A DNA stretch of 11,143 nucleotides, taken from the UHGV virus genome UHGV-0105484. One strand, given 5' to 3'. Positions 3,830 through 10,644 of the stretch are shown one piece after another; positions within the stretch are counted from its first letter, which is position 1, and each line of letters opens with the position of its first letter. The notes beneath the pieces were generated by a model. That model was not told where the DNA came from, did not search any database, and saw only the letters and a program-made list of their open reading frames with translations. A program made the position numbers and the translations under genes. This DNA comes from a virus.

Positions 3830-4030
3830 CTAATCTTTCGGATAGATATCCGGTCTTAAGTCAGATTTCGTAATTGCACCTGACGTGCATTGCTCAAGTT
3901 TTTTAGCCAGCACAAAACTGGCTTTTTTATAGCCATTGAAAACCAGCCGTAAGTAGCCAGATGTTGAGCCAACTTTTCCGGCCAACTCGCCCTGCTGTTC
4001 TTTGGTTAAAGAGTCCCAATACGCTTTCAT
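3830..4030 (-). CDS. Cro-like HTH regulator (YdaS/Cro type)
   Basis: 66 aa from ATG 4030, with strong SD GGAGG 11 nt upstream. MKAYWDSLTKEQQGELAGKVGSTSGYLRLVFNGYKKASFVLAKKLEQCTSGAITKSDLRPD has an HTH pattern. Divergent from the cI-like gene. The track's longer 167-aa ORF is an upstream extension without support. Confidence 0.6.
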   Translation of the reverse strand: MKAYWDSLTKEQQGELAGKVGSTSGYLRLVFNGYKKASFVLAKKLEQCTSGAITKSDLRPDIYPKD

Positions 4031-4120
4031 ACAATATGTACCTCCGGTGTACATATTACATGATTGAAATGAACCTTCAAGATACTTGTACCTTAACGGT
4101 ACAAGAGTTTTAATTTCGTT
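4031..4120. promoter_or_regulatory. Immunity switch region: divergent promoters and palindromic operators between cro-like and cI-like genes
   Basis: Two dyad sites share a GTACC/GGTAC core: 4034-4056 (atatgtac-ctccggt-gtacatat) and 4085-4105 (cttgtacc-ttaac-ggtacaag). Minus-strand candidate promoter TTGAAG-16-TAATAT precedes cro. Plus-strand candidate TTGTAC-17-TTTAAT ends about 7 nt before the cI ATG, which has no SD, suggesting a leaderless cI transcript as at lambda pRM. Confidence 0.5.
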
Positions 4121-4795
4121 ATGAAAACAATCCATGACATCCGGCGGTCTAACGCCAGAAAACTGAGAGATGGTGTTGGCGGGAATTCTTCCTTTGCCAC
4201 TATGATTGATCGCGAGCCAACCCAGACCAGCAGGTTTATGGGAGATGGTGCTACTAAAAATATCGGTGACAGCATGGCACGACACATCGAAAAATGTTTC
4301 GACCTGCCTGTCGGATGGCTCGATCAAGAACACCAGACAACGAACATCACAAAAAAACCTGATGTTTCAATCACTAATAAACAAATCACATTAGTCCCTG
4401 TCATATCATGGGTACAGGCCGGAGCATGGAAAGAAGTTGGATATTCTGAGGTTGATTTGAGCACAGCAGAAACGTATCCCTGCCCTGTACCCTGTGGGGA
4501 AATGACTTATATCTTGCGGGTGATAGGTGATTCAATGATTGATGAGTACCGCCCGGGAGACATGATTTTTGTCGATCCTGAAGTACCTGCCTGCCACGGT
4601 GACGACGTTATTGCATTGATGCACGATACAGGTGAAACCACCTTCAAAAGGTTGATAGAAGATGGGACACAGCGTTATCTCAAAGCGTTAAACCCAAACT
4701 GGCCTGAGCCTTACATTAAGATCAACGGTAATTGCTCTATAATTGGTACAGTGATTTTCTCAGGAAAACCAAGAAGATACAAAATCAAAGCCTAA
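4121..4795 (+). CDS. CI-like prophage repressor, HTH plus S24 (LexA-like) autopeptidase domain
   Basis: 224 aa; N-terminal HTH region; candidate Ala-Gly cleavage site (VQAGAW); catalytic Ser in GDSM and Lys in FKRL. Divergently arranged with the cro-like gene. Confidence 0.85.
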   Translation: MKTIHDIRRSNARKLRDGVGGNSSFATMIDREPTQTSRFMGDGATKNIGDSMARHIEKCFDLPVGWLDQEHQTTNITKKPDVSITNKQITLVPVISWVQAGAWKEVGYSEVDLSTAETYPCPVPCGEMTYILRVIGDSMIDEYRPGDMIFVDPEVPACHGDDVIALMHDTGETTFKRLIEDGTQRYLKALNPNWPEPYIKINGNCSIIGTVIFSGKPRRYKIKA

Positions 4796-4807
4796 TCAAT
4801 GTTTATG

Positions 4808-4831
4808 AACCTGCTTCGGCAGGTTTTTTTA
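4808..4831 (+). terminator. Rho-independent terminator downstream of cI
   Basis: Stem aacctgc / gcaggtt with loop ttcg, followed by a run of 7 T (4824-4830), 13 nt after the cI stop. Confidence 0.6.
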
Positions 4832-4834
4832 TAC

Positions 4835-4862
4835 TTGACAATGTACCTTTGAGATACATAAT
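4835..4862 (+). promoter_or_regulatory. Candidate pL-like sigma70 promoter flanked by operator-like half-sites
   Basis: TTGACA (4835-4840), 16-bp spacer, cATAAT (4857-4862). TGTACC motifs at 4842-4847 and 4862-4867 match the operator half-site seen in the cI/cro intergenic region. Confidence 0.45.
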
Positions 4863-5029
4863 GTACCCAAGCGAAACAACGAACAGGCAGGACGCCCACG
4901 AAGTAGCCGCCTGGGGCATATGAAGTCCAGGATGATTCGTTAGCAACAAAAAAGCGCTCTAAAGGACGCTTCGCTCTTTGACAATCTGGTCCCCATCAAC
5001 AAGTAACTGATAACTTGAGGAGGTGTGAA

Positions 5030-5236
5030 ATGCACAAAACAGAACCAAAAATCGTCGCACCCGGATACACAAATGAGGAAATTTACGAGTGGATGGCAAA
5101 GAAGCTGGCAGCTATAAACCAGCTTCGTGAAGTGCTGTCTTATCGACAGGAAACAATAGACTCCTTAAAAAAACTGGATCAGGAAATCACGGTTTTATCA
5201 CAGGATGTTACTTTAGATATTGTGCAGACAAATTAG
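5030..5236 (+). CDS. Hypothetical small acidic protein (68 aa), first ORF of the pL-like operon
   Basis: ATG 5030 with strong SD GAGGAGG 7 nt upstream (the track's 5015 start is TTG). No recognisable domain; not arginine-rich, so not an N-like antiterminator. Confidence 0.45.
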   Translation: MHKTEPKIVAPGYTNEEIYEWMAKKLAAINQLREVLSYRQETIDSLKKLDQEITVLSQDVTLDIVQTN

Positions 5237-9398: not shown

Positions 9399-9827
9399 TT
9401 AATTTCTAATAGACAAAAGGACTATTTGAATAACAATAAATATAATTTGTATTAAAGTTACAACTGCAAGAGTTAATGTAAGCGATGCGATAAAGTAGGT
9501 TTTAATACTTGAAAGACAAAGCAATGATAATAAAAGAGTAATACCAAGTTGAATAAAGCATACAAAATAAAAGATCATTGCGCCCTGTAAATATCCGTGT
9601 GCCCTAAATCTTTGTATGTTAGCATTATCTAAAGAAGTTAATATGACAATAAGAGCAAAAATGAGCGCCATCATTGCTGTCGCATACGATGCTAAAGCTG
9701 AACCAAGACCATCTAGATGTTCTTTGAAATTTACCCCCGGTAGAATATCATAGCGATATTTGTACACGCCAAAGCCAATAGCGTTTGTCATAATCGTTAA
9801 AACCACGGGGGGAAACCATTTAATCAT
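9399..9827 (-). CDS. RexB-like small integral membrane protein (4 predicted TM helices)
   Basis: 142 aa from ATG 9827, which lies 1 nt after the upstream stop (TGAnATG); the track's longer start is 9857. Four hydrophobic segments. Motif LPGVNFKEHLDGLGSALASYATAMMALIFAL matches lambda RexB as recalled (IPGVSFSAHRDGLGATLSSYAGTMIAIL); size matches RexB (144 aa). AT-rich. Confidence 0.6.
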   Translation of the reverse strand: MIKWFPPVVLTIMTNAIGFGVYKYRYDILPGVNFKEHLDGLGSALASYATAMMALIFALIVILTSLDNANIQRFRAHGYLQGAMIFYFVCFIQLGITLLLSLLCLSSIKTYFIASLTLTLAVVTLIQIIFIVIQIVLLSIRN

Positions 9828-9828
9828 T

Positions 9829-10644
9829 TCAGTATCCAGCAGCCCTAAGATCTGCATTATTAATAAAGTTAGTTACCATTTGGCTCTCTATAGATATATT
9901 TGCGTTTTTATTGACTATATCATAGATGCCACCCGTTGTCGCGACATGAAGCTCAATCGCTTGGTCTCCTAGCGCTTGCTTCGCCGCTATTGTCATTTCA
10001 CGGATACCTGCTGGTAAGTTGTTTAATGTTGGACTAATGGTATCCTTAATGTTTTTAAGATGTTTTGGTTTAATAGTAATTTCAAAACTGTCTACATCAT
10101 TAAGATCAACAGCTGTTATACCAAGAAAATTTGTCATCTCCCTTAACGCGAAAGGAGAATTAGGTTCTAATTTTACATTGATTTTCCCCATATGTGCATA
10201 CTGCAATGCCTGGGCTGGCGTAACAGTTTTCTTGATGGGCTCAAATCTTATATTTCTATTGTTATTCGTATTAAAGAAAAAGTTGTCATAATATTTACCA
10301 AAAGAGCCAATTTTGGGACCAAAGAGAGTCGAGCCATACCCTACACAACGATTAGAAATGTAAATATATGAGGCAAAAGCAACGTCCTGATTTTGTTGCA
10401 GCAATGCCGTAATGTCCTGGTAGTTGTTATTAACTCTATCGATGGTTTTTATAATGTCTGTATTATTTGTTTTTAAAAACATAAATACATCACCCAATAT
10501 ATGATGTATCGAGTAATACGAACCATCTAACCTAACTGTTTGTGTGTTGCTCTGAATGAGTTGCAGAAAAGAAGAGCTAAGAGAACTCGCAAGAGGTTGC
10601 CCGTTTTGCGGATAAAGATCATATTTGTAATAATTCGTTTTCAT
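9829..10644 (-). CDS. RexA-like soluble protein (271 aa)
   Basis: Complete ORF from ATG 10644 in a roughly 30% GC island. Size and position (upstream of and coupled to the membrane gene) match lambda RexA (279 aa). Recalled RexA motifs have counterparts: Y-x-Y-I-H, F-x-F-x-KTN (FMFLKTNN), T-x-FGP (STLFGP), I-x-IKPK (EITIKPK). Not confirmed by database search. Confidence 0.6.
   Translation of the reverse strand: MKTNYYKYDLYPQNGQPLASSLSSSFLQLIQSNTQTVRLDGSYYSIHHILGDVFMFLKTNNTDIIKTIDRVNNNYQDITALLQQNQDVAFASYIYISNRCVGYGSTLFGPKIGSFGKYYDNFFFNTNNNRNIRFEPIKKTVTPAQALQYAHMGKINVKLEPNSPFALREMTNFLGITAVDLNDVDSFEITIKPKHLKNIKDTISPTLNNLPAGIREMTIAAKQALGDQAIELHVATTGGIYDIVNKNANISIESQMVTNFINNADLRAAGY

Follow-up and report, generated by a model that had tools for sequence, protein, structure and literature searches.

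The window analysed here, the whole 11,143-nucleotide stretch of viral genome UHGV-0105484, carries two divergently transcribed genes, a cro-like gene on the minus strand (3830 to 4030) and a cI-like gene on the plus strand (4121 to 4795); in the list of open reading frames, positions 4031 to 4120 make up the entire 90-bp gap between them. This gap is very probably the right-operator region of the immunity module of lambdoid prophages of the e14/SfV family. The 1.25-kb region around the gap has matches in 2,164 of 5,426 complete E. coli genomes (about 40%), and the ymfK/ymfT regions of the matching genomes, K-12 derivatives included, are 98-99.6% identical at the nucleotide level. In K-12 derivatives the match is to the cryptic prophage e14 (98.5% identity), where the two genes are called ymfK (LexA-family) and ymfT (YdaS-family helix-turn-helix); phages SfIV, SfV, PhiR29, and PhiR49 are 98-99% identical over the 1.25 kb, and cdtI, Ayreon, and a set of Stx2c phages are about 95% identical; in the phages the genes are named cI and cro. 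The same RefSeq repressor protein is found in the K-12 derivative J53 and in strain NT1F10. Toward the end of the window an integrase gene is followed by the 3′ end of icd, with which the window terminates, so that the element, a lambdoid prophage of the e14/SfV type, occupies the icd attachment site.

Locus, operators, promoters, and terminator are all the same in the window and in the e14, SfV, and SfIV immunity regions, the CI protein is identical, and e14 likewise resides at icd. Only one base of the K-12 intergenic region differs from the window (4107, in the spacer of the cI promoter), leaving the operators identical; SfV differs from the window in the right half of OR1 and in the centre of OR3, two of the putative operators described below. 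The flanking modules, in contrast, are unlike those of e14: the window prophage has a complete replication region, and it carries a rexAB-like cargo at the site where e14 carries lit. The latter consists of a distant RexB (9399 to 9857, minus strand; PADLOC E=5e-55) and a distant RexA (9829 to 10644, minus strand; PADLOC E=1e-103; 24.5% identical to lambda RexA) lying between integrase and icd in an AT-rich segment (GC content 0.35 versus 0.46 for the window). This pair is present in only 1 of the 5,426 complete E. coli genomes, that of strain GPEC617, where both genes are annotated as hypothetical.

The cI-like gene (ymfK/cohE) encodes a repressor of 224 amino acid residues with a probable N-terminal DNA-binding domain and an S24 self-cleaving domain, and is 100% identical to SfIV cI at the protein level. 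Pfam places Peptidase_S24 at residues 93-212 (E=1.5e-26), the protein aligns to structures of the lambda cI C-terminal domain, and the Ala100-Gly101 cleavage site and the Ser138/Lys176 dyad are in the expected places. No Pfam family matched the N-terminal domain even at E<=10, and residues 1-75 match the structures of SPC32H Rep (5D50, E=5e-4) and of a phage CI N-terminal domain (7NKV, E=0.05); since the 5D50 alignment begins at residue 1, it supports the annotated cI start codon. Rep of Salmonella phage SPC32H (PDB 5D50) is thus the closest solved relative of the CI N-terminal domain, at low identity. The cro-like gene (ymfT/croE) encodes a small helix-turn-helix protein of 66 residues that RefSeq names "ymfT: YdaS family helix-turn-helix protein" and SfV calls "cro"; the Pfam YdaS_toxin model scores it at 24.9 bits, under the 30-bit cut-off. 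The gene that follows cro encodes a CII (CP76) domain.

The original prediction had recognized two dyad-symmetric sites with a GTACC/GGTAC core in the cro-cI gap, and both are where it had placed them; they share a 17-bp consensus, TGTACC-N5-GGTACA, and the alignment of relatives described below shows a third site that had been missed, OR2 at 4070 to 4086. Specifically, i) putative OR1 (4037 to 4053; TGTACC-TCCGG-TGTACA, TGTACCTCCGGTGTACA) has one mismatch to the consensus and, just as predicted for a dyad on the cro promoter and ribosome-binding site, extends from the final base of the predicted cro -10 over the region where cro transcription is predicted to start and over the cro Shine-Dalgarno sequence GGAGGT (4045 to 4040, minus strand); ii) putative OR2 (4070 to 4086; TGAACC-TTCAA-GATACT, TGAACCTTCAAGATACT) is weak, with three mismatches in the window, overlaps the cro -35, abuts OR3, and has its centre about 43 nt upstream of the start of cI on one side and about 31 nt upstream of that predicted for cro on the other; and iii) putative OR3 (4087 to 4103; TGTACC-TTAAC-GGTACA, TGTACCTTAACGGTACA) is a perfect dyad without any mismatch that overlies the -35 and spacer of the cI promoter. 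Two inverted repeats were called in the gap by a repeat finder: the first has arms at 4027-4041 and 4049-4063, and the second is a perfect pair, CTTGTACC and GGTACAAG, at 4085-4092 and 4098-4105. The 15-nt arms of the first dyad were considered as a functional unit and rejected; the left flank is not conserved, and the unit is the 17-mer. Symmetry, position, and conservation together suggest that these sites are operators. A search of the literature found no EMSA, footprint, or ChIP for YmfK or YmfT.

An analysis of e14 by Mehta, Casjens, and Krishnaswamy in 2004 is said in its abstract to have identified binding sites for the e14 repressor and Cro. In the GenBank record of SfV (U82619.2), positions 26377-26445 are annotated as a regulatory feature, "putative operator region"; they correspond to window positions 4036-4104 and hence to OR1 through OR3 with one additional base at each end. 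The locus is therefore already known, and its immunity is of the known e14/SfV/SfIV type rather than a new one; the distinct immunity specificity that had been proposed is this known one.

Two divergent promoters can be aligned with these sites. The predicted cro promoter (pR-like; 4053 to 4080, minus strand) combines a -35 TTGAAG (4080-4075) and a -10 TAATAT (4058-4053) across a 16-nt spacer; it matches the consensus at 8 of 12 positions, which is below the threshold of our promoter scan, and the bases of it that remain constant across genera are the TTG of the -35 and A2, A5, and T6 of the -10. Cro transcription would be expected to start near 4046-4050, inside OR1 and just upstream of the Shine-Dalgarno sequence. 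The cI maintenance promoter (pRM-like; 4086 to 4121, plus strand) combines a -35 TTGTAC (4086-4091) and a -10 TTTAAT (4109-4114) across a 17-nt spacer. The -10 ends 6 nt before the cI ATG, so that the expected start is A4121 of the ATG itself, and no Shine-Dalgarno sequence is found upstream of that ATG (4121). With OR3 lying on TTGTAC at 4086-4091, the second dyad does fall on the -35 of a promoter that starts at the cI ATG, as had been proposed.

A further promoter with 17-mers of the same type lies immediately beyond cI. An intrinsic terminator (4807 to 4833, plus strand), found by the terminator scan, annotated in SfV as a putative rho-independent terminator, and kept in relatives, is followed by a strong pL-like promoter (4835 to 4862, plus strand; TTGACA-16-CATAAT, 11 of 12 matches) that reads away from cI. 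This is the strongest promoter-like site of the region, is invariant in all relatives, and is an annotated promoter in phage Ayreon. Putative OL1 (4842 to 4858; TGTACCTTTGAGATACA; one mismatch) lies between the pL hexamers; putative OL2 (4862 to 4878; TGTACCCAAGCGAAACA; two mismatches), which belongs to a direct repeat (D1), lies over the predicted pL start; and the centres of the two are 20 bp apart. The original prediction had placed operator-like sites at 4842-4867; operator-like 17-mers are indeed present there, but their true extent is two 17-mers, 4842-4858 and 4862-4878, on a strong promoter. Among the 17 relatives examined, OL1 has zero or one mismatch in all 17, the string terminator - TTGACA - A - TGTACCnnnnnGGTACA - TAAT is likewise kept in all 17, and a site with two or fewer mismatches occupies the position of OL2 in 12.

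We examined the conservation of the right operators in loci from a scan of species-representative genomes, which yielded 19 loci from more than 15 enterobacterial genera with CI proteins 73-100% identical (Pseudocitrobacter, Klebsiella, Atlantibacter, Leclercia, Phytobacter, Enterobacter, Pantoea, Trabulsiella, Kluyvera, Limnobaculum, Rahnella, Edwardsiella, Entomohabitans, and others); the addition of two diverged phages, Hafnia phage yong2 and Edwardsiella phage EPP-1, gave an alignment of 21 sequences. From the first base of OR1 to the last base of OR3 this alignment of 21 loci has no indels, and all three OR sites keep their position and half-site sequence throughout. Over the same 21 loci the half-sites carry 1.83 (OR1), 1.81 (OR2), and 1.94 (OR3) bits of information per column, the central 5 bp of OR3 carry 0.45, and the remaining intergenic columns 1.06. 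Invariant half-sites around a free centre are what would be expected for a dimeric helix-turn-helix protein contacting two 6-bp half-sites one helical turn apart. In most of these relatives OR2 reads TGAACC-nnCAA-GGTACT, where TGAACC is invariant across the 21 loci and GGTACT is the majority right half.

A distant locus with the same arrangement is that of Pseudomonas phage vB_Pae_BR133a (locus L031, 1116-1201), in which three sites of the TGTACC-N5-GGTACA type have the same layout as in the window: TGTACC-TCCTG-GGTACA lies over the ribosome-binding site of the divergent gene, TGTACC-GTCAA-GGTTCT and TGTACA-TTTCT-GGTACA form an abutting pair, and the -10 is separated by 6 nt both from OR3 and from the ATG, as in the window. 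The N-terminal 71 residues of the BR133a repressor (263 residues) are 59% identical to YmfK, its C-terminal part is different, and the Cro homologue is 33% identical. The shared layout implies an old module in which Cro and the operators are passed on together with the CI DNA-binding domain, and the composition of the BR133a repressor indicates what would be domain shuffling around a conserved unit of Cro, operators, and DNA-binding domain. More distant CI relatives (Ralstonia phage Hennie and loci in Comamonas, Variovorax, and Giesbergeria) have other dyads or none that is clear, and were no help for covariation.

These comparisons bear on three other readings of the sites. The first, that there are only two operators and that 4070-4086 is not a binding site, its conservation reflecting instead the overlapping cro -35, the cI -35, and flanking sequence, we consider quite unlikely. 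At three mismatches OR2 is at chance level and not significant alone (7 matches with three or fewer mismatches are found in the window versus 2.8 expected), the TTG of the cro -35, read on the other strand, gives the conserved CAA at 4078-4080, and T4086 belongs to the cI -35; yet TGAAC at 4070-4074, which falls in the cro promoter spacer, a stretch that promoter function should leave unconstrained, is invariant in the 21 loci, the right half of OR2 has a perfect half-site core, GGTAC, in most relatives, and BR133a has TGTACC-GTCAA-GGTTCT in the same place. It is the invariance of TGAAC where no promoter constraint would be expected that leads us to favour three operators in OR.

The second reading, in which the dyads play no part in regulation and either arose by chance as palindromes or merely resemble restriction sites (GTAC/GGTACC), is extremely improbable. 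The tetramer GTAC is indeed common, with 32 occurrences in the window, but the spaced 17-mer with two or fewer mismatches occurs 5 times in the 11,143 bases versus 0.20 expected, an enrichment of about 25-fold that none of 200 shuffles equalled (0/200 reached 5), and 4 of the 5 copies cluster at the two promoter regions; moreover, the centres change from genus to genus, but half-sites and spacing do not. Enrichment and conservation together exclude chance palindromes, and the comparative data effectively refute them. The fifth copy (4486 to 4502) lies inside the cI coding sequence, and since its right half fits at only 4 of 6 positions we treat this copy itself as a chance match. The third reading, that the dyad at 4085-4105 is the hairpin of an intrinsic terminator and not a protein-binding site, has practically nothing to recommend it and was rejected: the terminator scan does list it, with AGTTTTAATT after a stem of 8 bp that includes 4 G-C pairs, but no plus-strand transcription enters the dyad (no plus-strand gene lies upstream, cro being on the minus strand), the stem is reduced in relatives to the 6-bp half-sites and neither its extension nor the T-run is conserved (for example GGTACACAATGTTTAAT and GGTACAGAATGTCTAAT), and the same 17-mer occurs at OR1 and OL1 without a T-run.

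The proposal that the cI transcript is leaderless finds direct support in published data for the same gene. Differential RNA-seq of E. coli MG1655 start sites detected only five leaderless mRNAs, among them ymfK of e14 (PMC4681348; Romero et al. 2014), whose start, RVS_(I)-1202156 in Table S3 of that paper, is the first base of the gene (leader 0) and is also shown in Fig. 2E. Because the K-12 intergenic region differs from the window by a single base (4107), this mapping transfers to the window. The spacing it requires is also conserved: 18 of the 21 loci retain nnTAAT-N6-ATG, with free variation in the six bases between, and in the other three, the Pantoea locus and the two Edwardsiella loci, 7 nt separate the -10 from the ATG. 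Having already been mapped in K-12, the leaderless repressor transcript is not new. Two deposited cI start codons can be reconsidered in the same alignment. In Hafnia phage yong2 (L029, 1716) the deposited start lies 117 nt too far downstream and trims the DNA-binding domain, and in Edwardsiella phage EPP-1 (L030, 1586) it lies 66 nt too far upstream and carries the reading frame through the operators; both deposited starts appear to be wrong, and the conserved ATGAAAAC start behind the -10 fits both phages.

The arrangement was originally described as mirroring the pR/pRM logic of lambda with a different operator sequence. The general plan does so: in lambda, as in the window, cro and cI diverge, OR holds three 17-bp dyads (operators in lambda, putative operators here) with the middle one about 42-43 nt upstream of where cI starts, the repressor is of the S24 self-cleaving kind, operators on pL lie downstream of cI in the same orientation, and a leaderless cI mRNA is made from the maintenance promoter. 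The differences are nonetheless substantial: i) the operator sequence TGTACC-N5-GGTACA is unrelated to that of lambda; ii) the centres of the OR sites are 33 and 17 bp apart here versus 24 and 23 bp in lambda, and OR2 and OR3 abut here; iii) the best dyad here, a perfect one, is that on the cI promoter; iv) two OL sites rather than three are recognizable here, and OL is 0.8 kb from OR; and v) there is no rexAB after cI here, and the CI N-terminal domain has no detectable similarity to that of lambda. The layouts of the two switches part in three things: the spacings, the abutment of OR2 and OR3, and the place of the perfect dyad.

The immunity region of phage 21 had been suggested for comparison. 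Both phage 21 and e14 integrate in icd, and phage 21 (lambda imm21), like the window, has a lambdoid CI with an S24 domain. However, the imm21 repressor matches CI only over residues 93-212, the protease domain (41% identity); its DNA-binding domain is unrelated and its immunity is therefore different, so that the comparison, once run, leaves nothing in common with the imm21 repressor beyond the S24 domain.

The transcript expected from pL begins with sequences that deserve description in their own right. Directly after OL2/pL lies a non-coding element of about 60 nt (about 4886 to 4942, plus strand), the sequence of which hardly varies among more than 10 genera. One hairpin in it has a stem at 4911-4915/4928-4932, a conserved loop GGCRTAYGAAKR, and three pairs with compensatory changes, and a small GGC-AGGAC-GCC hairpin precedes this one. 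The element also occurs in phages of other immunity (SfII, ST64B, ZF40, mEp237, mEp460, phiNP, and YeP1-3) and partially in T5-like Providencia phages, mostly unannotated in both groups, and the phages that share it include members of the SfV group, which are reported to be without N. It has no credible Rfam match, whether at the gathering threshold over the whole window or at E<=5 over 4780-5060; there is one copy per locus, neither the window nor locus L001 having a second copy on the pR side; and an HK022-type put site was considered and rejected, as there is no similarity to the nun-cI region of HK022 and a covariance model found nothing. In the pL transcript, the element may act as an RNA for antitermination or processing.

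Immediately beyond this element the relatives are no longer homologous: the immunity module common to E. coli genomes and phages ends in mosaic junctions at about 4942-4945, where query coverage breaks (1079-1145), and different pL-operon modules follow. In the window, the pL transcript upstream of an open reading frame for 73 amino acids (5015 to 5236) next contains a hairpin AAGCG...CGCTT (4951 to 4972), which scores as a terminator on the minus strand, followed by CGCTCTTTGACAA (region 4951-4985). In two of the loci (L001 and L005) the sequence corresponding to 4951-4985 contains GCTCTTTAACAA, which we take to be the core of the boxA antitermination sequence of rRNA operons.

From these features we can propose how the switch might work. 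i) A dimer of YmfK/CohE would bind the 17-bp operators TGTACC-N5-GGTACA; ii) CI at OR1 would cover the cro start region and ribosome-binding site and so shut off the lytic promoter; iii) OR3, over the -35 and spacer of the cI promoter, would mediate negative autoregulation and could also be the site at which Cro shuts off cI; iv) OR2 may both repress cro, whose -35 it overlaps, and, by analogy with lambda only, stimulate cI from a position about 43 nt upstream of its start, much as lambda OR2 sits relative to pRM; v) occupancy of OL1 and OL2 would repress the strong leftward promoter just after the cI terminator; vi) the repressor mRNA begins at the A of the AUG and is hence leaderless, as the published start mapping for K-12 e14 shows; and vii) upon DNA damage, RecA-stimulated cleavage at Ala100-Gly101 by Ser138/Lys176 would derepress both promoters. 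We propose this last step because CI has an S24 domain and SOS inducibility of e14 functions has been reported; according to the literature, LexA does not govern the SOS-inducible e14 function SfiC/ymfM, for which control by CohE is presumed. Of all this, the sequence features with their conservation, the S24 domain, and, through the published data, the cI start are shown, and protein binding at the sites, their order of filling, any activation from OR2, and the cro start are inferred.

We would stress that the geometry of OR2 and OR3 makes one part of this scheme uncertain. The two sites abut, 17 bp centre to centre, and simultaneous occupancy and lambda-style activation are therefore both in doubt; occupancy of OR2 (activating) and of OR3 (repressing) could be mutually exclusive, or could place the bound proteins on opposite faces of the helix. 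The possibility of a toggle arises because the perfect and best-conserved operator, OR3, lies on the repressor's own promoter and abuts an OR2 whose departure from the consensus, TGAACC, is invariant. We know of no such autoregulatory toggle described for lambda, 434, or P22. That the switch departs from lambda logic through an OR2/OR3 toggle, and that the hairpin RNA of the pL leader is an antitermination or processing element, is as a whole a speculative and rather unlikely proposition.

The prophage family whose immunity region this is ranks among the commonest in E. coli, and beyond good annotation this matters little; our understanding of lysogeny switches is unchanged by the results. What the analysis adds is an explicit operator consensus of 17 bp; a third site in OR and two in OL; the correction of mis-annotated cI start codons in two phage records; and evidence that Cro, the operators, the CI DNA-binding domain, and the leaderless start are kept as a unit from the Enterobacterales to a Pseudomonas phage. 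The operators may be of use in the study of e14 induction (SfiC/YmfM filamentation and e14 excision), and could provide an additional orthogonal repressor-operator pair.
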